Below are positions 13,513 to 27,225 of a stretch of DNA of 64,000 nt, one piece after another. The notes beneath the pieces were generated by a model, which was not told where the DNA came from, did no database searches, and saw only the letters and a program-made list of their open reading frames with translations. Within the stretch, counting starts at the first letter, position 1; each line of letters opens with the position of its first letter. Location of the stretch: positions 87,188-151,187 of the forward strand of contig DLQJ01000007.1 in NCBI GenBank assembly GCA_002477545.1, given 5' to 3'. The translations under genes were made by a program, and so were the position numbers. The stretch comes from Patescibacteria group bacterium UBA7435 (GTDB lineage: Bacteria > Patescibacteriota > Minisyncoccia > Phycocordibacterales > UBA918).

Positions 13513-14607
13513 CTAGAAAATTTTAGTCAGGTCATTGAAAGTGACAAGAATCATCAGTAGCATAAGCAGCATGAACCCAGCAATATTCAATCGTGCAACC
13601 CACACTGGATTAATGGGCTTTCGTGTTACCACTTCAACACCCACCATGACCAAACGTCCTCCATCAAGTGCTGGGAACGGTAACATATTAATAACAGCAA
13701 GATTCAATGAGATCACTGCAGTAAACATAAGGAGTGACGTCAGACCAAACTCAGCTGCATCTCCTACTAATCCCACAATGCCAATTGGTCCTGCAACCTG
13801 TGAAAAGTCAGCAGTTCCTTGTACGCTTTGTCCGAGCAGTGTAGCAATTCCAATGGTGATCGCTTTAAGTGAAAACACAGTCGTCTTCGTTGCACTCCAA
13901 AGTGCTTCATGCACAGGCTCTTTCACCGTTTCAACAAGTGACAACGCTACTCCTACAGCAGCTCGTTCAGGATCATCAAGAATCAAACCTTTCTCTGGGG
14001 TTATTATTGCTTCTGCAGTCTGCCCATCAAGCGTGTACGCGATAGTCACTTCGTTTTCACCATTTGCCTGCGTAAATTCTGCAAACGCTGAGGGTGTAAG
14101 TTCGTCAGCAGCATCTCCATTTACTGAGAACCCTGTAACCTGTGCCCCAACAGGAAGCAGTGCAACGTCAGCAGGGCCTTCGTGCACCACGTGTACCACG
14201 GTTAATCGTGCACCATCAGTAGCAACATCTTCATCAACCGCCGTAGGAAGACCTACCATAAACACAATTGCGAACAAGAACCATGCAAAGATGATATTCA
14301 TTGTTACCCCTGCAATCAGTACTGCAGCCTGTGCCCATTTACTCTTTGCAGTAAAAGAGTCAGAAGGAATATCTCCATCGACAGTAACATCTTCAGCATT
14401 TTCACCTGCAATTCGGACAAACCCTCCAATAGGCAGCGCATTAAACGTGTACTCGGTTCCCCGCCATTTCTTACCAAATAATTTCGGTGGAAATCCAATA
14501 CCAAACTCATCTACCCGCATTCCTGTTTTCTTAGCAACAATAAAGTGCCCCCATTCATGTACTAGAATAAGTACAAAAAGTACCAGGAAGAATAATAGAA
14601 TAGTCAT
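13513..14607 (-). CDS. rseP: RIP site-2 zinc metalloprotease RseP
   Basis: HEWGH (HExxH) motif in the first TM; PDZ region; LDGG motif. Confidence 0.85.
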   Translation of the reverse strand: MTILLFFLVLFVLILVHEWGHFIVAKKTGMRVDEFGIGFPPKLFGKKWRGTEYTFNALPIGGFVRIAGENAEDVTVDGDIPSDSFTAKSKWAQAAVLIAGVTMNIIFAWFLFAIVFMVGLPTAVDEDVATDGARLTVVHVVHEGPADVALLPVGAQVTGFSVNGDAADELTPSAFAEFTQANGENEVTIAYTLDGQTAEAIITPEKGLILDDPERAAVGVALSLVETVKEPVHEALWSATKTTVFSLKAITIGIATLLGQSVQGTADFSQVAGPIGIVGLVGDAAEFGLTSLLMFTAVISLNLAVINMLPFPALDGGRLVMVGVEVVTRKPINPVWVARLNIAGFMLLMLLMILVTFNDLTKIF

Positions 14608-14609
14608 AA

Positions 14610-15158
14610 TTAGCGAGAGATTTCAATTTCTTTCTGTGTGTAGAGCGCTTCCAATTGTGTATTGATAGCTTCAACTTTCTTTTGGGCAGATTCCTTTTGT
14701 GTAAACTTCTCATCCTCACTAATATCTCCGTCTTTTTGTTGCTTCTCCAAGTCTTTCATAAACTCATCACGCACAGTACGTACTGATACACGTGCATCCT
14801 CAAGCTTACTTTTTCCAAGTTTCAATAATTGTTCACGTCGATCTGAGGTCAGTTCTGGGAAAATAACTCGCAAACCAGCAGAATCAGTCGCAACTGAAAT
14901 ACCTAAATCTGCTTCTCGTAATGCAGTTTCTATAGCAGTGATACTCCCTGCATCCCATGGAGAAATACGAAGTGTTCGTGCATCCTCAACACCCACTGAA
15001 CCAACTTGGTTTAATGGCATCATACTTCCGTAGTTCTCTACCTTAATACTATCCAAAAGTGCAGGCGTTGCCTGTCCTGTTCGAATACCAATATATGCGG
15101 TGCTTAACCACTCTAAAATTTCTTTTCCTCGTGCATCAATGTCTATCATATGTATCAA
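14610..15158 (-). CDS. frr: ribosome recycling factor
   Basis: 182 aa with full-length Frr similarity. Confidence 0.9.
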   Translation of the reverse strand: MIHMIDIDARGKEILEWLSTAYIGIRTGQATPALLDSIKVENYGSMMPLNQVGSVGVEDARTLRISPWDAGSITAIETALREADLGISVATDSAGLRVIFPELTSDRREQLLKLGKSKLEDARVSVRTVRDEFMKDLEKQQKDGDISEDEKFTQKESAQKKVEAINTQLEALYTQKEIEISR

Positions 15159-15185: not shown

Positions 15186-15809
15186 CTACTGTTTTGGTAG
15201 TGCTAATGCTAACTCTTCACACAACATCTTCGCAGAAGCGCCCGGAGTTTTACTGTATTCTCTGATAAATAATACTGTCTTTAACAACAGTGCATTTTTT
15301 TGTGTATCTCCAGAAGCATACACTTCAGCTCCACAAAGCACATCCTCAAAAAATTGTATTTCTTTTTTCTTAGCCGCATCAGCAATGGAAGCGAGGCGTC
15401 CTGCATAATCATCTGCGACAAACATATCAAATGTATCATTGCTTAGCATTGCTATTGCACTGTCTGAGCTGATAATGGCTACACGTGATCGTAGTGTAGG
15501 AATAAGCATTCCCTCTTGTGGTATGACCAAATAAAATTGCGCGAATTCTGGTGGGTCTTCAAACAGTTTCAGTAAGGCGTTTTGTGATTCAATAGGCAAT
15601 ACTTTAACCACCAATACAAACACGCGCATATCTTGTTCAATTGGTTTTTGTAGTGCGTCAGTTGATAAGGTACGTGCATCAGCAATACTAAATCTATCAA
15701 GGACTATATGCGTAACATCACTTGATGATTTTTTATAAGCTTCAGGTACTCCAGAAGCTTCTAGGGTGGAAGCTATACAAACATTTGCGTGATGATCATC
15801 AGTAGTCAT
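15186..15809 (-). CDS. holB: DNA polymerase III delta-prime-like clamp-loader subunit (short)
   Basis: LLKLFEDPP (LLKTLEEPP box) and TLRSRVAI (SRC sensor) present; only 207 aa with no P-loop. Confidence 0.55.
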   Translation of the reverse strand: MTTDDHHANVCIASTLEASGVPEAYKKSSSDVTHIVLDRFSIADARTLSTDALQKPIEQDMRVFVLVVKVLPIESQNALLKLFEDPPEFAQFYLVIPQEGMLIPTLRSRVAIISSDSAIAMLSNDTFDMFVADDYAGRLASIADAAKKKEIQFFEDVLCGAEVYASGDTQKNALLLKTVLFIREYSKTPGASAKMLCEELALALPKQ

Positions 15810-19420: not shown

Positions 19421-22195
19421 CTACATCATACCAAATGGATCGTCGATTTTGACTTCTGGTTTTTGATAACGCTGTGCGATATCTGCCTCAACCTCAGCTC
19501 TGGGCTTCCCGTACTTCTGGTAACTCATCTCGATCATTCGTGCAACTCGTGCATGATCAGTATCCTGTGGCGCATGCGTTGCCATACTAAATGGCTTTGT
19601 TGGAGTTCCATTGGCAAGTACTCGCATATACGCAGTACGATTAGGTACATTCATTAAGTCAGCACTTTCAAACGTTGGTGCAAATTGAGATTCAAGATAC
19701 TGTGCGTCCTCAGGTCCCGTACGGAACACCGCCATGGATCCAACGTTTCCAAATACTGCGTCTTTAATATCTTCATCAAGCTGTGCAATAAACTGGTGTG
19801 CAACGGTAAGACCAAGTTTATATTTTCGGGCTTCTGAGAGAATTGCGGAAATAGAATTTGTTGAAATATTCTGGAACTCATCCATGTGTAAGTAGAAGTC
19901 AGGGAAGCTCTTGGTAGGATCATCTACGCGCGAAAGAGCAGCCATAAGAATTTTTCCCACCATAATCATACCAATGAGATTCGCATTGATTTCACCAAGC
20001 CGTCCCTTTGAAAGATTTACCAACAGAATTTTCTTTTGATCCATCACCTCACGGAAATCAAACGCTGATTTCTGCTGTCCAATAATTGGACGCATGTAAT
20101 CGTTCGCGGTGAAGACATCAAATTTTGAAACAATGTAGGGCACAATATTTTCAAGTGAGGCTTCCCCTCCTGCCTTAGTTGCAATCTCCCTCCAGAACTG
20201 GACCACCACAGGGTTCTTAGCTTTCTCAAGTTTCATGCGACGGAATTTCGCATCAACCATGACGCGTGAGATGTCCATCAACGTACTTCCACTATCAGGA
20301 TCCTCCATAACCAACAATGTTGCATTACGAAAGTACTGCTCAAACATAGGACCCATGGATTCTGGATTTCCTCCATACAACTTTTGGAATATAGAAAAGA
20401 GTTCATTCACCACAAAGGTCTTCTGCTCAGGCTTATTAATATCGTATTCAAGCATATTAAACCCAACCACACGGTCCATACGTGACGGGTCAAAATAAAT
20501 CACGTCCTTCTCACGTTCAGGTGGAATTGAGCTCAAAATATCTTCAATATCCGTTCCATGAGGATCGATCATACACACCCCAGCTCCAGAAGCGATGTCT
20601 TGCGTGATCATGTTCTTCATCAATGTCGTCTTTCCTGTTCCTGTCTGTCCAATGATATAGAAGTGACGCAGTCGATCTTCTTGCGAAATGTATACAGGCC
20701 GATCAGAACCACGGTGCGAGTTGGTCCCAAGTAGCGTTCCGTCATGAGGCATCTCACTTGGTGCAGCAGCTGTCTTTGCGCGTGATTGCTTAAATTCGGG
20801 AGATGAATCAATGCCATCTGCAGGAAAGTGAACCATCGTCGCAAGCTCAATCAAAGAAAGAGGTAACGCACGCTTTGTTAAAAATTCACGAAATGAGAAG
20901 GCTTTTATTTCACGTTGCAGAGCCGTGCCTGAAAGATGTGTAAACGTAACCTTGTTTCCCCGTGTGTGCTCAAACTGATTAAAAGTAGCTTCAACCTCAC
21001 TAAGAATTTGCGTAGCTCGTGCACCATCTTTTGCCGAAACAGCAACACGAATATTTGCTTCGACAATCGGTGCAGTTCGTTTTTCTGAAAAGAGATCAAT
21101 AACGTCTTGGTCAGATTGTGCAGTAGGAAGGTGTTCGTCATTTTCTTTTTTCTTAGCACTCCCAGACACTAAGTCCTTCACACTCACAAACATGTCCCCA
21201 CTAAACGTACTACGTGCGATAGCTTCCTTAACCTTCATTCCTTTCTCAACACGCTTGATGATTCCTTCGTACTGCCCTTTGTATTTACCAGGCGCAGTTT
21301 TGATAACCACTTGTAGTGCAGCACCTCCTCCATCTTTCTCTATTTTTGAAAATGCGTTTAGAAGTACTGCAAACGGATCAGTTTCAAAATTTTCTTTTGA
21401 ACGAATTGGGTAAATTGGATGCTTAGCAAGCTTCGCCACTGCAACTTTGGAAGTCCCGCCTTCAACAAAGACATTGTAATCGTGTTTTTGTTCGGTAAGA
21501 ACCACGTCTGGGTAGAGGGAGAGAATCTGTTTTTGGAACAAGTCTATATATTGCGTTGGTATTGCCACATAAAAAATGATGTGATCACTCCCCTCTGGCG
21601 TGGCAACTTCAAGTACATAATGCTCATTTTTAGTATGTTGCCCTATAGCCTGCATTCCTGCATAAAATTGTTCCATCATGCCAAACAGCTCAGAGAGTTG
21701 TTGCTCATGTCCCTCTTTAGTGCGTATTTCAGGAAGTGCAACTTCAAAGAGTGTCATATGCAAAATATGCCATGGCGCAATGCCTTCTTTTAAATCCTGC
21801 ATTTGTGCACCTTCCTTAATAAGTTCAACTAAACGTCGATGTACCTCATCGGTTTCAAATGGGTTGTTACTCTTCTCCAGGACAGACAGTGCGTTGTGAA
21901 TTCCCTTTTCAAGTGCCAGTTGCAGCACTTCTTCAACAACATTGGTAGACGTAGTAATGTGCTCTGCGTGAGAAGTCACATCTTCGGGCTCCATTTGATG
22001 CTCAGAAGATAAAACCGTATTTGGGGTAAATGTGCCATATTCAAAAAGCTCCTGCTTTCCCACCGTTTCGAGTTCAAGTGTATCGGCCTCTGGAGCACGG
22101 TCTAAAAGCGTTCGCTCTTTCTCAGCGATCTGTTGACGTAAGTATGAAATTTCCTCCTCGGGAGAAGAAAATTGCTTGGGAACACCCTCGAGCAT
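19421..22195 (-). CDS. FtsK/HerA/TraD-VirD4-superfamily P-loop NTPase with a large novel N-terminal domain
   Basis: 924 aa; Walker A GQTGTGKTT; Walker B LHMDEFQ; ARKYKLGLTVAHQFIAQL translocase motif; ~480-aa N-terminal domain with no TM. Confidence 0.65.
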   Translation of the reverse strand: MLEGVPKQFSSPEEEISYLRQQIAEKERTLLDRAPEADTLELETVGKQELFEYGTFTPNTVLSSEHQMEPEDVTSHAEHITTSTNVVEEVLQLALEKGIHNALSVLEKSNNPFETDEVHRRLVELIKEGAQMQDLKEGIAPWHILHMTLFEVALPEIRTKEGHEQQLSELFGMMEQFYAGMQAIGQHTKNEHYVLEVATPEGSDHIIFYVAIPTQYIDLFQKQILSLYPDVVLTEQKHDYNVFVEGGTSKVAVAKLAKHPIYPIRSKENFETDPFAVLLNAFSKIEKDGGGAALQVVIKTAPGKYKGQYEGIIKRVEKGMKVKEAIARSTFSGDMFVSVKDLVSGSAKKKENDEHLPTAQSDQDVIDLFSEKRTAPIVEANIRVAVSAKDGARATQILSEVEATFNQFEHTRGNKVTFTHLSGTALQREIKAFSFREFLTKRALPLSLIELATMVHFPADGIDSSPEFKQSRAKTAAAPSEMPHDGTLLGTNSHRGSDRPVYISQEDRLRHFYIIGQTGTGKTTLMKNMITQDIASGAGVCMIDPHGTDIEDILSSIPPEREKDVIYFDPSRMDRVVGFNMLEYDINKPEQKTFVVNELFSIFQKLYGGNPESMGPMFEQYFRNATLLVMEDPDSGSTLMDISRVMVDAKFRRMKLEKAKNPVVVQFWREIATKAGGEASLENIVPYIVSKFDVFTANDYMRPIIGQQKSAFDFREVMDQKKILLVNLSKGRLGEINANLIGMIMVGKILMAALSRVDDPTKSFPDFYLHMDEFQNISTNSISAILSEARKYKLGLTVAHQFIAQLDEDIKDAVFGNVGSMAVFRTGPEDAQYLESQFAPTFESADLMNVPNRTAYMRVLANGTPTKPFSMATHAPQDTDHARVARMIEMSYQKYGKPRAEVEADIAQRYQKPEVKIDDPFGMM

Positions 22196-22361: not shown

Positions 22362-23375
22362 TTACCGCTTCGTTAGGATTGTGCGCTTGTAGGTGTCTAG
22401 ATGTTCCAGAGCCACCCCAGTCCCCTTCGCGACACAAAACAGTGCCTGATCTGCAAGAAGTGCTTTCACTCCGGTACGGCGTCGGATCAATTCTGGAAAA
22501 TTCCGTAACTGTGACGTTCCTCCAGTCATAATAATTCCGTTGTCAATAATGTCTGCAGCAAGCTCAGGTGGTGTTTCTTGAAAAACATCCTTAATTGCCT
22601 TAACCATTTCTCGTAGTTCTCGCGAGATCGCACGCACAATTTCATTAGTTTTGATTTCTGTAGTTCGCGGTAGACCCGAAAGTAAGTCCCGTCCCTTAAT
22701 ATCCATAGTGATCTCTTCCTCAAGTGGCAACGCTGAACCCACCTTAATCTTTATGTCTTCCGCAGTTTTTTCTCCAATAGCAAGATTTCGCGTTTTCTTT
22801 ACATAATCAATGATCGCTGCGTCAATTCGGTTTCCTGCGCACTTTACTGAGTTCGCAGCCACAATACCGCCAAGTGAAATCACCGCAACATCGATTGTCC
22901 CTCCACCTATATCTACAATCATATGTCCCTGCGCTTCATATATAGGCACTCCCGCACCAATAGCAGCGAGAATTGGCTCCTTCACCACGTATGCATTTTT
23001 TGCACCAGCTTTTGCTGCTGCTTCTACTACCGCACGCTTTTCTGTAGAAGAAACTCCAGCTGGTACGGACACCATCACTTCAGGTCGAAAAATATTGTAT
23101 TTACTAAGTGTCTTCTTAAGAAAGTACCGGAGCATTGCTTCAGTCACTCGGTAGTCAGCAATCACTCCATCCTTCATAGGTCGGTACGCACGGATACTTT
23201 CCGGAGTTCGTCCAATCATACGCTTTGCTTCAGCACCTACAGCAAGCACCTGATTATCGTCAGAGACCGCCACCACTGACGGTTCGTTAAGTACCACTCC
23301 CTCACCAGGAACAAACACCAGTACATTAGTTGTACCTAAATCAATCCCAAGTTTTGGAGTAAATGATGAAAACAT
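22362..23375 (-). CDS. mreB: MreB paralog (actin-like ATPase)
   Basis: 337 aa; GIDLGTTN, DGVIADY, DIGGGT, MTGGTS motifs; second copy, 10.5 kb from the first. Confidence 0.85.
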   Translation of the reverse strand: MFSSFTPKLGIDLGTTNVLVFVPGEGVVLNEPSVVAVSDDNQVLAVGAEAKRMIGRTPESIRAYRPMKDGVIADYRVTEAMLRYFLKKTLSKYNIFRPEVMVSVPAGVSSTEKRAVVEAAAKAGAKNAYVVKEPILAAIGAGVPIYEAQGHMIVDIGGGTIDVAVISLGGIVAANSVKCAGNRIDAAIIDYVKKTRNLAIGEKTAEDIKIKVGSALPLEEEITMDIKGRDLLSGLPRTTEIKTNEIVRAISRELREMVKAIKDVFQETPPELAADIIDNGIIMTGGTSQLRNFPELIRRRTGVKALLADQALFCVAKGTGVALEHLDTYKRTILTKR

Positions 23376-23398: not shown

Positions 23399-23435
23399 TA
23401 GGAAAAAGAAAAGGGCGGATTAAGTATCCGCCCTT
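23399..23435 (-). terminator. rho-independent terminator
   Basis: aagggcggat-taagt-atccgccctt, T-tract on the minus strand. Confidence 0.7.
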
Positions 23436-23444
23436 ATCGTCAAA

Positions 23445-23666
23445 CTACGCAGCTTTATGTTTTCTTAAGACCTCGTCGAAGGTCCCCTTACAAACCAAAA
23501 AATTTACTGCGTCGGTTGTTTTAGAAGCAGTAAGATCAGCTGCAACTACAACACAAGCTTCTTCAGAAAATTTCCCGTTCGTATCAACAGGAAATAAATT
23601 TTTTCCGTTATTTTCATCACGCACTACACACCATATTTCCTGTGCTACATCACTACCATCATCCAT
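23445..23666 (-). CDS. hypothetical small protein (73 aa)
   Basis: ORF with its own terminator. Confidence 0.4.
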   Translation of the reverse strand: MDDGSDVAQEIWCVVRDENNGKNLFPVDTNGKFSEEACVVVAADLTASKTTDAVNFLVCKGTFDEVLRKHKAA

Positions 23667-23763
23667 TTTTCTACCTCCGAATCTGTAATGAAAAGACTAT
23701 ACCACAATATTTTTGATAGAGCAATTAATACTGTATATAGCGTTTGTGCTATAGTGCAGATAT

Positions 23764-25263
23764 ATGGATAATATTGGAAATCGAATCGCTTCCCTGCGCG
23801 AACAGGCACGCTTTACACAATCTGTCTTAGCAGAAAAAATCGGCACCACACAAAGTGCGGTGGCACGAATGGAAACAGGAAATCAAAATATCTCAACTGA
23901 AATGGTACGAAAAATAAGCAAAGCGTTAAATAAAAATCTCTTGACCGGAACACCTGGATCAGTAAATCTTCAAATTGAAGGTGGGGAGACGCTCTCGGGA
24001 ACTATCCAAACCAATACTTCGAAAAACGGTGCGGTTGGTCTTTTGTGTGCGTCATTACTAAATACAGGAACTACTACCCTACGTCGTATGCCTCGTATTG
24101 AAGAAGTATATCGCTTGATCGAAGTGCTTGAGAGTATCGATGTAAAAATCGAATGGGAGGGTGATCTAATGAAAATTACCCCACCGAAGAAATTCGATCT
24201 TTCGAAGATCAACGTAGAAGCAGCCCGCCGCACACGAAGTATCGTAATGTTTATTGGTCCACTAATGCATCACCTTAAAAAGTTCTCACTTCCACAATCG
24301 GGAGGTTGTAAACTTGGCAGTCGAACAGTGAGACCTCACTTCTACGCACTTGAACACTTTGGTGTGAATATCGAAACAACTGAGGACGCATTTGAAGTAA
24401 CTGCATCACCCGTATGTCCAAGTGAAATTATTCTCTACGAATCAGGTGATACGGTAACTGAAAATGCACTTTTTGCTGCAGCACTCTCCCCGTGCACAAC
24501 GACGATTAAATACTGTTCGGCGAACTATATGGTACAAGAAATGTGTGCCTTCCTTATTGCATGCGGGGTAAAAATTGAAGGAGTTGGAACCACAACACTT
24601 ACCATAACAGGTATACCTGAACTGGCACTGGATATTGAATACACACTGGCAGAAGATCCAACCGACTCGATGTTCTTCATTGCAACTGCGATTGTTACCA
24701 ACTCAGAACTCACTATCACACGTTGCCCTATTGATTTCCTTGAACTTGAGCTTCTGAAGCTTGGGAAGATGGGATTCAAATACACGCAATCAGAACCGTA
24801 TCTCAGTGATAATGGACTAACGCGTTTAGTAGACCTTGTAACCAAACCCTCTAAACTCACCTCACTGCACGAAAAAGTGTACGCTCGACCTTACCCAGGT
24901 CTGAATATCGATAACCTTCCCTTCTTTGCAGTTATTGCAACCCAAGCGGATGGGCAAACGCTCATCCATGATTGGGTATATGAAAAACGAGCAATTTACT
25001 TCACTGAACTTGATAAGCTCGGAGCTGAAACCATGCTTGCTGATCCACATCGCATCTACATCACCGGACCAACAAAACTACGAGCAAACGAGCTCGTATG
25101 CCCTCCTGCACTACGTCCTGCAACCATTCTGCTTATCGGAATGCTTGGCGCAACCGGAACATCAGTACTGCGTAATATCTATAGTATCAATCGAGGATAT
25201 GAAAATCTTGTAGAGCGCTTGCAGTCACTTGGTGCGAAGGTGTCGTATCTTGAGGAATTTTAA
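23764..25263 (+). CDS. murA: XRE-family HTH domain fused to UDP-N-acetylglucosamine 1-carboxyvinyltransferase
   Basis: N-terminal ~60 aa is a Cro/C1 HTH; remainder aligns to full MurA including the catalytic Cys (GGCKLGSR) and C-terminal RGYENL. Confidence 0.85.
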   Translation: MDNIGNRIASLREQARFTQSVLAEKIGTTQSAVARMETGNQNISTEMVRKISKALNKNLLTGTPGSVNLQIEGGETLSGTIQTNTSKNGAVGLLCASLLNTGTTTLRRMPRIEEVYRLIEVLESIDVKIEWEGDLMKITPPKKFDLSKINVEAARRTRSIVMFIGPLMHHLKKFSLPQSGGCKLGSRTVRPHFYALEHFGVNIETTEDAFEVTASPVCPSEIILYESGDTVTENALFAAALSPCTTTIKYCSANYMVQEMCAFLIACGVKIEGVGTTTLTITGIPELALDIEYTLAEDPTDSMFFIATAIVTNSELTITRCPIDFLELELLKLGKMGFKYTQSEPYLSDNGLTRLVDLVTKPSKLTSLHEKVYARPYPGLNIDNLPFFAVIATQADGQTLIHDWVYEKRAIYFTELDKLGAETMLADPHRIYITGPTKLRANELVCPPALRPATILLIGMLGATGTSVLRNIYSINRGYENLVERLQSLGAKVSYLEEF

Positions 25264-25287
25264 GAAATTGATGGCAACACAACAACA

Positions 25288-25325
25288 AAAGACCCGAAAG
25301 TCGAAGACTTTCGGGTCTTTTGTTA
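25288..25325 (+). terminator. rho-independent terminator
   Basis: gacccgaaagtc-gaa-gactttcgggtc then TTTTGTT. Confidence 0.8.
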
Positions 25326-25338
25326 TACTACCTATATT

Positions 25339-27225
25339 ATGTTTATTATCGAAGTGATTCCCCTATCTCGTGCTGGCATGATCGAATCACTTTCGTACTA
25401 CTGCGCTACAGCCTATCCTATAGGATCGTTCATCAGTGTCCCTGTGCGCAAAAAAGAAATCCAAGGTGTAGTTATTGGCACCAAACCTGTGTCTGCAGCA
25501 AAAACTGCCATCCGTGCAGCGACTTTTTCACTAAAAAAAATAGCTACTGTAGAAAACCCACCAGCGCTCCCAAAGAGCCTTATGGAAACCGCGCAAGAAC
25601 TCGCAAAAAATACCCCTGCACATATAGGAAGCATTCTCTTTGCATTACTGCCCCCTGATGTACGTTCTGGTGTACGCGAATACCCATACAGCACTAACTA
25701 CAGCAACAACGAAAGTTACACTCCATCGATTCTCACCGGAGTATCTAATGATCGTTTCATCTCGTATCGTAGCCATATACGTCAATGTTTTGCACATCGT
25801 GGATCAGTACTATTTGTTGTACCAACCTCAGCCTCCGTACACAGCGCAAAGGCAGCACTTGAAAACGGCATCGAAAAACGGGTGGTTACCTTCTCGAGCA
25901 CTCACACAAAGAAACAGATTGAAAAATCCTATGAAGCGTTCTCTGATTTAAGTACCGCAAAACTTATTATCACCACACCAAATTTTGCATTCTTAGACCG
26001 TCATGACATCACCAGTATTATTGTTGAAGAATGTGGATCTAATCATTACAAAACACGAACGCGCCCTTATCTAGATGCACGCGAGATCCTTAAGACGTAT
26101 GCCAAGGTAACAAAGCGGACTATCTTAATGGGAGATATACTACCTCGCACTGAAGAAGAAGCACTACGCCGCGATGACGTATACGAAACTCATGATGAAC
26201 ACCCCAAGCGATTAAGTATTGAAAGTTCCTTTACTGTTAGTGAACACGAAAAAACGGAAAGGGTAAAAGAATTTGCAATCTTTACACCTGAGCTTATTGA
26301 TTCTGTTAATCGAACTATCAAGGCCAAAGGAAGTGTATTCCTTTTTGCCGCTCGAAAAGGCCTTGCTCCATTGATAACCTGCTATGACTGTAGTCACATT
26401 TTCCGGTGCCCTGATTCAGGAGCTCCATACTCACTACTGCAGACCTATGAAAAAGGCGAAGAAAAACGTTGGTTCTTCTCATCTACCTCAGGAAAGAAAG
26501 TACGTGCTGACGATACTTGCCCGAAGTGTGGCTCGTGGCGCTTGCGTGAGCAAGGTATCGGCATTCAACAAGTAGTCATGCAAGCTCGAAAGTACTTTAA
26601 GGATGTGCCGTTGACCATCTTCGACCACACTTCAGCAACTACACATGTAAAAGCTAAGAGACTCACGAAACAATTTTATGAAGAGAAAGGTGCAATCATG
26701 ATTGGTACCACTATGGCGTTACCGTATCTCACCAAACCCGTAACTATCACCGCAGTTACATCATACGAAGCAGCACGCGCAATACCTACTTGGCGTGCAG
26801 AAGAAACATTGCTCAGTCTTCTGTTGACCTTGCGAGAAAAAACAACTAACGAATGTTTTGTACAAACGCGAACTGATCCTGATCAGCTTCTAAAATATGC
26901 AGGACGTGGATTAATTGACGAGTTCTATACCGAAGAGATCATGATGCGTCAGGTTCTTTCCTACCCTCCCTATGCCGTTTTCATTCTCCTTACGTGGGTA
27001 GGTACCCCAGAACAAATTCGTGAAGCAGAGGGATATATACAAACACAAATTCTCGGACATGAGATGCAGTGTTACAACGCACCTACTGTAACTACCAAGG
27101 GAATCACACGCTACGGGTTGATCCGTATTGCAAAAGAAGACTATCCTGACGCAAAACTTATCGATCAGTTGCGTCAACTTCCTCCTTCGGTAAAAATTGA
27201 GATTAATCCTGATAAAATTATTTAA
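25339..27225 (+). CDS. priA: PriA-like primosomal protein with degenerate helicase motifs
   Basis: PriA 3'-DNA-binding N-terminus and C-terminal domain present. Walker A absent, Walker B is EECG, no Arg finger; priA-def-fmt synteny. Confidence 0.6.
   Translation: MFIIEVIPLSRAGMIESLSYYCATAYPIGSFISVPVRKKEIQGVVIGTKPVSAAKTAIRAATFSLKKIATVENPPALPKSLMETAQELAKNTPAHIGSILFALLPPDVRSGVREYPYSTNYSNNESYTPSILTGVSNDRFISYRSHIRQCFAHRGSVLFVVPTSASVHSAKAALENGIEKRVVTFSSTHTKKQIEKSYEAFSDLSTAKLIITTPNFAFLDRHDITSIIVEECGSNHYKTRTRPYLDAREILKTYAKVTKRTILMGDILPRTEEEALRRDDVYETHDEHPKRLSIESSFTVSEHEKTERVKEFAIFTPELIDSVNRTIKAKGSVFLFAARKGLAPLITCYDCSHIFRCPDSGAPYSLLQTYEKGEEKRWFFSSTSGKKVRADDTCPKCGSWRLREQGIGIQQVVMQARKYFKDVPLTIFDHTSATTHVKAKRLTKQFYEEKGAIMIGTTMALPYLTKPVTITAVTSYEAARAIPTWRAEETLLSLLLTLREKTTNECFVQTRTDPDQLLKYAGRGLIDEFYTEEIMMRQVLSYPPYAVFILLTWVGTPEQIREAEGYIQTQILGHEMQCYNAPTVTTKGITRYGLIRIAKEDYPDAKLIDQLRQLPPSVKIEINPDKII

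Follow-up and report, generated by a model that had tools for sequence, protein, structure and literature searches.

An XRE-type helix-turn-helix fused to MurA in Patescibacteria, with a conserved operator-like palindrome over its own promoter

The fused gene and its two-domain protein

The stretch of DNA analyzed here, which we call the window, comprises 64,000 nucleotides of the genome of Patescibacteria group bacterium UBA7435 (contig DLQJ01000007.1, positions 87,188 to 151,187 of the forward strand). It carries a gene, hereafter HTH-murA, whose product joins a helix-turn-helix (HTH) domain of the XRE family in frame to MurA, the UDP-N-acetylglucosamine (UDP-GlcNAc) enolpyruvyl transferase. 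MurA performs the committed step of peptidoglycan synthesis and is the target of fosfomycin. Just upstream of HTH-murA lies an operator-like palindrome that overlaps the putative promoter of the gene, and the features of the locus are gathered in table 1.

Table 1. Features of the HTH-murA locus, in window coordinates
Feature	Position	Strand	Remarks and basis
HTH-murA coding sequence	23764..25263	+	ATG start, 499 amino acids (aa) plus stop; list of open reading frames (ORFs), Pfam, NCBIfam
XRE/Cro-C1 HTH, four helices	23773..23928 (aa 4-55)	+	Pfam HTH_3, AlphaFold2 (AF2) model, ratio of nonsynonymous to synonymous substitution rates (dN/dS), translation check
Flexible linker TGTPG	23944..23958 (aa 61-65)	+	AF2 predicted local distance difference test score (pLDDT) <50; alignments with solved and modeled MurAs start at aa 61-70
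Full-length MurA (UDP-GlcNAc enolpyruvyl transferase) domain	23959..25260 (aa 66-499)	+	Structure alignments, Foldseek, catalytic residues
Operator-like palindrome TATAGCGTTTGTGCTATA	23736..23753		Inverted repeat; conserved in orthologous loci
Extended -10 TGcTATAGT	23747..23755	+	Overlaps the right palindrome arm; read from the sequence
Predicted transcription start site (TSS; leaderless mRNA)	23762..23764	+	On the A of the ATG or 1-2 nt ahead of it; from the spacing between -10 and ATG
Hairpin with 20-bp stem, likely terminator	25283..25325		After the murA stop; terminator scan
mreB, divergent neighbor	22362..23375	-	Pfam MreB_Mbl, E 3.9e-130; context, possible co-regulated gene

From the perspective of domain architecture, both halves of the protein can be assigned to known families. 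An earlier, sequence-only reading of this DNA had described the first ~60 residues as a Cro/C1-type HTH, a description borne out by the match to Pfam HTH_3 (PF01381) at residues 8-59 (E 1.1e-12, 48.2 bits against a cutoff of 23) and by the AF2 model, which places helices at residues 4-14, 19-26, 30-38, and 45-55 with a pLDDT of 73-90. PF13560 also matches the fused HTH (36.6 bits against a cutoff of 27), HTH_3, HTH_31, and HTH_19 all recognize it in Pfam, and the recognition helix (residues 30-38) lies within TTQSAVARMETG, encoded at 23845-23880 according to the translation check. Beyond the linker, Pfam EPSP_synthase (PF00275) takes in residues 72-486 (E 4.3e-37) and covers profile positions 2-417 of 417; the same translation check puts the motif GGCKLGSR at 24301-24324 and its catalytic Cys182 codon at 24307-24309, and the C-terminus of the protein reads RGYENL...LGAKV. 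Among the NCBIfam models, the MurA subfamily NF006873 is passed just above its cutoff (298.8 bits against 297), and the scores for NF009470 (202.8 against 552) and for the equivalog TIGR01072 (285.5 against 392.7) fall below theirs; the shortfall against TIGR01072, the strict equivalog, makes this a divergent MurA. The AF2 model, with a mean pLDDT of 86.9, shows the complete MurA fold with a flexible Cys loop (residues 182-185), and Foldseek aligns it to solved MurAs with target-normalized template modeling (TM) scores of 0.86-0.92, the top 45 matches being MurA or NikO (TM 0.84-0.92, likewise target-normalized). These solved relatives are plain MurAs aligning to residues 61/70-498 of the window protein, and neither the sequence comparison nor Foldseek returned among them a PDB chain spanning both HTH and MurA. 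By sequence, fold, and residues, the protein belongs to the MurA and to the XRE-HTH families, and the claim that the HTH is fused in frame to a full-length MurA with its catalytic Cys holds for the ORF, the Pfam matches, and the alignment of catalytic residues alike.

With regard to function, K22, N23, R91, C115, R120, D305, R331, R371, and R397 (E. coli numbering) are all present in the window protein, as judged against an E. coli MurA reference whose length and numbered residues matched expectation. These nine residues are invariant in 78 of 78 orthologs and intact in 115 of 123 more distant fused homologs, and D369 is replaced by Pro or Ala (motif PPALR). On the basis of this complete set of key residues and of the confident MurA fold, the MurA domain is predicted to be catalytically competent. 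Mean identity to the window protein is 57% in the HTH versus 76% in the enzyme domain, and dN/dS, estimated by the Nei-Gojobori method, is 0.04-0.27 for the HTH codons versus 0.03-0.16 for the enzyme, dS being near saturation but the ratio clearly far below one. These ratios point to purifying selection on the HTH that is similar in strength to that on the enzyme domain. In addition, T18, Q19, T29, Q30, S31, A32, A34, R35, E37, and G39 are invariant among the 59 HTH sequences compared. Because the HTH codons are constrained and the DNA-reading positions invariant, an internal start is not credible, and the caveat of the sequence-only reading that translation might begin at a Met downstream of the HTH falls away, selection being as strong there as in the enzyme. 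Such a start is made still less likely by the ATG-free stretch between codons 46 and 109 and by the promoter directly before the first ATG.

The architecture is moreover widespread. In a search of 5.8 billion proteins clustered at 90% identity, at least 120 clusters share the length and the domains of the window protein, the best 120 being almost only ~499-aa proteins with HTH_3 plus EPSP_synthase at 76-87% identity. A genome scan with one genome per GTDB species found a relative in 309 species, in genomes titled Kaiser-, Nomura-, and Taylorbacteria or Paceibacteria/Parcubacteria; among the best 80 of these 309, which all show the fused architecture and supply the counts of orthologous loci below, the match is essentially full-length in 77, and the three shorter matches abut the end of the locus. 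The HTH is thus conserved among orthologs, as the sequence-only reading had proposed to verify. Starting from a distant fused homolog, a search gave 1881 matches at E<=1e-20, of which the best 120 are all ~500-aa HTH-MurA proteins from Patescibacteria, Lipton-, Colwell-, and Doudnabacteria included, and in an exhaustive HMMER search of representatives at 50% identity, fused members reach down to 32-36% identity. Overall, HTH-MurA is unusual for bacteria as a whole, yet it is the standard form of MurA across Paceibacteria/Parcubacteria, so that the earlier remark on a noncanonical architecture is right for bacteria in general but does not apply within these lineages, where the fusion is the norm.

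The same observations bear on the suspicion, also voiced in the sequence-only reading, that a sequencing or assembly error had joined two ORFs. The identical protein is encoded on contigs of separate samples, in independent assemblies, and an uninterrupted ORF of ~500 aa recurs in hundreds of assemblies, which rules out an assembly or frameshift artifact. More generally, the idea that annotation or assembly has joined two genes, or that the start lies after the HTH, can appeal to an in-frame TTG at codon 60, which has no Shine-Dalgarno (SD) sequence; already effectively refuted by the assemblies, by the HTH dN/dS, and by the promoter at the first ATG, it is left with a negligible probability.

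One fused cluster, at 53% identity, comes from cultured actinomycetes of the genus Nonomuraea, in which RefSeq names the protein either MurA or "helix-turn-helix domain-containing protein." In Nonomuraea sp. NEAU-A123 (WP_214634277.1; locus L084, 5001-6530), HTH-MurA is catalytically intact, the host genomes measure 11-13 Mb, and an XRE gene and a phage-type integrase lie next to the fused gene. This distribution suggests horizontal transfer between Patescibacteria and Actinomycetes, the copy presumably being an additional MurA there, and it makes Nonomuraea a cultivable system for experiments on HTH-MurA. In the full-text literature on MurA, HTH, and Patescibacteria topics, we found no paper describing the fusion or its operator: HTH-MurA is abundant in sequence databases without comment, and we found no published characterization. 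Its regulatory half is invisible in databases because the proteins are annotated as MurA or as "HTH domain-containing protein."

The palindrome over the promoter and its link to the HTH

The core of the window palindrome, ATAGCG-N4-TGCTAT, occupies 23737-23752 (inverted repeat I16). Its half-sites lie 10 bp apart from center to center, that is, one helical turn, as expected for an HTH dimer on one face of the DNA. Across 76 loci and 100 nt of otherwise unalignable upstream DNA, the consensus (T)ATAGCA-N4-TGCTAT(A) is the sole conserved element. In 67 of the 80 species loci, each of ~9.5 kb, ATAGC-N6-GCTAT has a single exact match, which invariably lies immediately 5' of HTH-murA, against a calculated chance expectation of ~0.01 per locus. 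When the variants ATATCA and ATCTCA are allowed, every one of the 77 loci with enough upstream sequence has a site. In the window, the 64 kb contain no match at one mismatch or less other than the copy before HTH-murA, which is also the top match to a position weight matrix (PWM; 17.8 bits, the next best reaching 4.8), so that no second site or wider regulon is apparent in those 64 kb. Likewise, ~730 kb of related loci hold no extra sites besides the cognate ones and second copies in two divergent loci. These two, L072 (3896 and 3920) and L081 (3672 and about 3797), carry two palindromes upstream of the gene, possibly as cooperative or tandem operators. In many orthologous loci, a T-rich then C-rich motif (about TTTTCCCCA) lies 18-28 nt upstream of the palindrome, with a catagtac-like sequence further to its left; read on the minus strand, the TTTTCCCCA-like motif may correspond to the spacer and -10 of a putative conserved promoter of mreB, to which it bears a resemblance. 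The mreB gene is divergent upstream of HTH-murA in 70 of 78 loci, with start-to-start distances of 65-162 nt in 43 of them, and the operator thus usually lies within a compact mreB/HTH-murA control region, through which mreB could possibly be co-regulated.

The right arm of the palindrome coincides with an extended -10 element. In 77 aligned loci, TGnTATAnT is conserved at T11 (99-100%), G12 (100%), and T19 (92%). As T19 lies outside the palindrome and its left-side mirror is only 36% conserved, this appears to be a true plus-strand promoter element superimposed on a symmetric site rather than a pair of back-to-back promoters. The distance to the ATG is 9-12 nt from the end of the palindrome and 6-9 nt from the end of the -10 in 56 of the 77 loci, a spacing that would have transcription begin at the ATG or no more than 1-2 nt from it, too close for an SD sequence to fit. 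A simple sigma-70 scan did not call the HTH-murA promoter since there is no -35, and it is the conserved extended -10 that speaks for a promoter here. This arrangement is common in the window: among 58 genes (crude gene calls), an SD-like motif precedes only 8, and a -10-like box, often TGnTAnnnT, stands 5-10 nt before the start of 22, 11 of them with the TG extension. Genes with such boxes include priA at 25339 and those starting at 15809(-), 19416(-), 35799, 39029, and 43733(-). Leaderless expression therefore seems to be the rule for this organism, and the extended -10 and leaderless start proposed for HTH-murA from the sequence are supported by conservation among orthologs, although they do not set this gene apart from its neighbors.

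The palindrome, in turn, follows the HTH into other genomic contexts. The closest unfused relatives, at 46-59% identity, are stand-alone MurAs; the two examined (P0123 and P0130, 46-49% identical in the MurA domain) sit in the housekeeping contexts infB-rbfA and rpsF-ssb-rpsR, and the palindrome is absent upstream of both. By contrast, the fused gene of Nonomuraea, in a GC-rich genome and among quite different neighbors, has ATCTCATATGTGAGAT 13 nt upstream of its start codon. When metagenome contigs were searched for exact copies of the 18-mer TATAGCATATATGCTATA, at least 120 loci emerged (L088-L207). Among the 120 listed, HTH-murA stands right behind the 18-mer in 24 (tblastn), and a ~95-aa XRE protein with the helix GT[KT]QSVISRLESG (GTKQSVISRLESG) is found in 43 (clustering of first ORFs). 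In many of the latter loci, the last A of the palindrome is also the A of the called ATG. A Gp49/HigB-like toxin gene is present in 22 (Pfam Gp49, E 1.2e-16 for a toxin sequence that was scanned), with an XRE HTH ~280-500 nt from the palindrome in at least 10 of these 22 (tblastn). With a profile built on the MurA-fused HTH, an XRE HTH of the family type is detected within 800 nt downstream of the 18-mer in 77 of the 120 loci, against only three in their other 509 kb, a calculated enrichment of roughly 79-fold per base. Most of these XRE-HTH genes are of the antitoxin type. The window HTH itself is 39% identical (E 2e-12) to the small ~95-aa XRE proteins. Residue 29 of the recognition helix furthermore covaries with position 4 of the half-site: T29 goes with ATAGCA in 134 of 136 half-sites, and Ser at this position with AT(A/C)TCA in 18 of 24. 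Since the palindrome tracks the HTH across these contexts, it probably serves as cognate operator for this XRE subfamily, which is otherwise typical of self-repressing antitoxin cassettes.

It could be objected that the palindrome is promoter architecture only, for instance the back-to-back -10 boxes of mreB and murA, or the site of another regulator, with the HTH acting elsewhere or nonspecifically. Such an account would be in keeping with TGcTATAcT being a common extended -10 of this genome, with the frequent divergent position of mreB, and with a window palindrome that is not significant when taken alone. We nevertheless regard it as quite improbable, since the mirror of the last T that a minus-strand -10 would need is poorly conserved, and since the palindrome is kept in Nonomuraea and in a group of degenerate HTH-MurA homologs (see below) without mreB adjacency while being absent before unfused MurAs. 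The recurrence of the same 18-mer before unrelated operons encoding the same HTH subfamily, and the covariation of helix residue 29 with the half-site, likewise speak against it.

Proposed self-repression, its alternatives, and known systems

Taken together, these observations make it likely that HTH-MurA is bifunctional, an active MurA that also represses its own gene. Autoregulation, which the sequence-only reading had merely suggested, gains weight from a palindrome that covers the gene's own -10 in 77 of 77 usable loci and that is linked to the same HTH subfamily elsewhere. From sequence comparisons, we infer DNA binding, repression rather than activation, and dimeric binding. In the mechanism that we propose, two HTH domains would bind the two half-sites of TATAGCA-N4-TGCTATA, the right one being the extended -10 (TGcTATAGT) of a leaderless promoter; owing to this overlap, the bound protein would exclude RNA polymerase, and the level of MurA would be held by direct negative feedback. 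More speculatively, DNA binding may be tuned by the substrate or product that occupies the MurA domain (UDP-GlcNAc, phosphoenolpyruvate [PEP], or the tightly bound complex of UDP-N-acetylmuramic acid [UDP-MurNAc] and PEP adduct), so that the enzyme would be its own sensor, as in BirA; solved MurAs that trap UDP-MurNAc and a PEP-Cys adduct are 3swd, 3su9, 3swe, and 3swg.

Several observations weigh against this interpretation. The window palindrome is among the least perfect, with three asymmetric positions, and it does not stand out from shuffled sequences, so that its significance is purely comparative. Its right arm is also the organism's consensus extended -10, so that some of the observed conservation reflects the promoter. 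The covariation between residue 29 and the half-site is supportive only, because few independent lineages contribute to it. As regards dimeric binding, MurA is usually monomeric, and as regards ligand control, the AF2 model shows no confident contact between HTH and MurA and thus gives no structural hint of allostery.

A different balance between the two halves would be that the protein is essentially a transcription factor whose MurA-like domain serves as a ligand sensor, the real MurA being encoded elsewhere. A related degenerate subgroup, small and derived, is just that. In 8 of the 123 distant fused homologs (P0132, P0133, P0142, and P0286-P0290), C115, R120, R91, R371, and mostly R397 are lost, further cases of residue loss being P0148, P0151, and P0253, and the degenerate homologs score below all MurA cutoffs. 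A canonical unfused murA is found near the degenerate gene in the three loci examined (L083, L085, and L087), with murB beside it in two; the canonical murA of L085, the one scanned, scores 325 bits, above the cutoff. In L085 (5001-6503) and L087 (5001-6530), the regulator is divergent from murA-murB and is followed by ddl and a mur ligase in the former and by a mur ligase in the latter, and the palindrome lies in the 60-85-nt intergenic region shared with murA-murB. In L083 (3498-5003), where no murB was seen, the palindrome stands just before the regulator, from which murA, ~2 kb upstream, is separated by a small ORF and a Mur ligase. For P0151 (L210, 5001-6554), the site precedes an operon of NUDIX, nucleotidyl-transferase, and regulator genes. 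It thus appears that the fused copy, where it stands beside a separate MurA, has become a pure regulator of cell-wall genes.

For the window protein itself, however, we consider the sensor account improbable. The nine catalytic and substrate-binding residues remain invariant across all 78 species of its clade, no second MurA is present in the 64-kb window, no EPSP-type neighbor was noted within 4 kb on either side of the 78 orthologs, and the nearest unfused relatives are ordinary stand-alone MurAs. That the catalytic set is invariant where no second murA is nearby and decayed beside a canonical murA argues that the fused protein is the working MurA in the lineage of the window. A regulatory role would appear, on this comparison, to be the constant feature of the HTH-MurA family, and the series from active enzyme-repressor to pseudo-enzyme regulator offers a natural view of how an enzyme can become a sensor domain.

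These elements can be assembled into a broader scheme, which we find attractive but rather unlikely to hold as a whole. In it, the state of the MurA domain (open or closed, or the "dormant" UDP-MurNAc/PEP adduct) would control the occupancy of the operator by two molecules, so that flux would set murA transcription and maybe that of mreB; the pseudo-enzymes would be the same sensor minus catalysis. Since HigA-like antitoxins have the same operator, cross-wiring between cell-wall synthesis and toxin-antitoxin modules would also be conceivable.

Among known systems, the closest counterpart to an enzyme that represses its own gene is the Group II biotin protein ligase BirA, an enzyme with an N-terminal HTH repressor domain (PMC4016012, PMC6391492). 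On the proposed mechanism, the two would have in common an essential enzyme, an HTH at its N-terminus, a palindromic operator in a promoter of its own pathway, and a feedback loop closed by one protein. The palindrome of HTH-murA overlaps the -10 of its own gene and, in the degenerate subgroup, lies in or next to cell-wall gene clusters. Neither the enzyme fold nor the pathway is the same, and repression by BirA falls on the bio operon, not strictly on BirA itself; moreover, dimerization induced by the co-repressor is demonstrated for BirA, whereas ligand control of HTH-MurA is only hypothesized. The HTH of BirA is a winged one, of a class different from XRE. NadR and PutA are enzymes that likewise act as DNA-binding regulators. 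So is RbkR, a metabolic enzyme fused to a DNA-binding domain that controls the same pathway (PMC5397151). Unlike HTH-MurA, RbkR, NadR, and PutA have no involvement of peptidoglycan synthesis or MurA. We know of no such trigger enzyme that uses an HTH/operator cassette of the antitoxin XRE type.

Compared with canonical stand-alone MurAs (E. coli, E. cloacae, Listeria, and others), the window protein has the same fold, the same catalytic residues, and a Cys115 on a flexible loop, but it is only 23-28% identical to them in structural alignments and carries an extra 65-aa HTH plus linker. The HTH half, for its part, belongs to the same subfamily as XRE antitoxins of type II (HigA-like, with Gp49/HigB-like toxins) and the ~95-aa XRE proteins, as seen in the helix GT[TK]QSxIxRxESG. 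An identical 18-bp palindrome stands just upstream of the operons of HigA-like antitoxins, so that the autoregulatory cassette looks shared. Here, by contrast, the gene looks monocistronic and the HTH forms one polypeptide with a housekeeping enzyme; no toxin partner adjoins HTH-murA, whose neighbors are a 73-aa ORF, mreB, and priA, and the protein is therefore not an antitoxin.

The proximity of mreB raises one more alternative. RodZ binds MreB through an XRE-like HTH, and mreB is the conserved divergent neighbor of HTH-murA, so that the HTH could be a module for protein-protein contacts that tethers MurA to the MreB elongation machinery. We hold this to be very improbable as the function of the domain. 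RodZ-type HTH_25 gives no match at E<=0.01, and there is no transmembrane segment, MurA following directly after the HTH, which together make the protein not RodZ-like. In addition, the canonical DNA-reading residues are invariant, the cognate palindrome is conserved, the same type of HTH occurs in antitoxins, and loci without a neighboring mreB still keep both the fusion and the palindrome. Tethering and DNA binding are nonetheless not mutually exclusive.

With regard to what self-repression by HTH-MurA would mean, the amount of MurA is set in Firmicutes by PrkA-ReoM-ClpCP proteolysis, as outlined in two studies (PMC7286690, PMC8959180). Both systems would set the amount of MurA, the gatekeeper of peptidoglycan synthesis, but the former involves a kinase, an adaptor, proteolysis, and several proteins, whereas HTH-MurA would be transcriptional self-repression by the enzyme itself. 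It would differ from every mode of MurA control described so far. The known control of MurA level is post-translational and takes several proteins, and an ultra-small, mostly uncultivated radiation appears to use a single polypeptide. If so, cell-wall synthesis would join the short list of pathways under enzyme-repressor fusions. The 18-bp operator, the 60-aa HTH, and the predicted specificity residue also form a precisely testable cis/trans pair, which is rare in Patescibacteria.

Neighboring genes and further observations

Downstream, priA follows HTH-murA in 68 of 78 loci. Because a hairpin comes right after the murA stop, the gene looks monocistronic. The hairpin overlaps the extended -10 TGtTATACT of priA (ATG at 25339; region 25283-25349).

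On the other side, a 73-aa ORF (23445-23666, minus strand) lies between mreB and HTH-murA, with a strong GGAGG 7 nt upstream and a terminator-like hairpin of its own at 23411-23435. It matches no Pfam family and is unique to the window, since none of the other 77 orthologous loci has it; in these, mreB usually borders directly on the operator region. Just beyond mreB, a 924-aa ATPase (19421-22195, minus strand) with matches to HerA/DUF87, TrwB, and T4SS-DNA_transf resembles a type IV coupling protein, and a homolog occurs in 53 of 78 orthologous loci, making it part of a conserved neighborhood. Further away, two ORFs, one of 364 aa on the minus strand (13513-14607) and one of 376 aa on the plus strand (13535-14665), overlap over nearly their whole length, and likely at most one of them is real.

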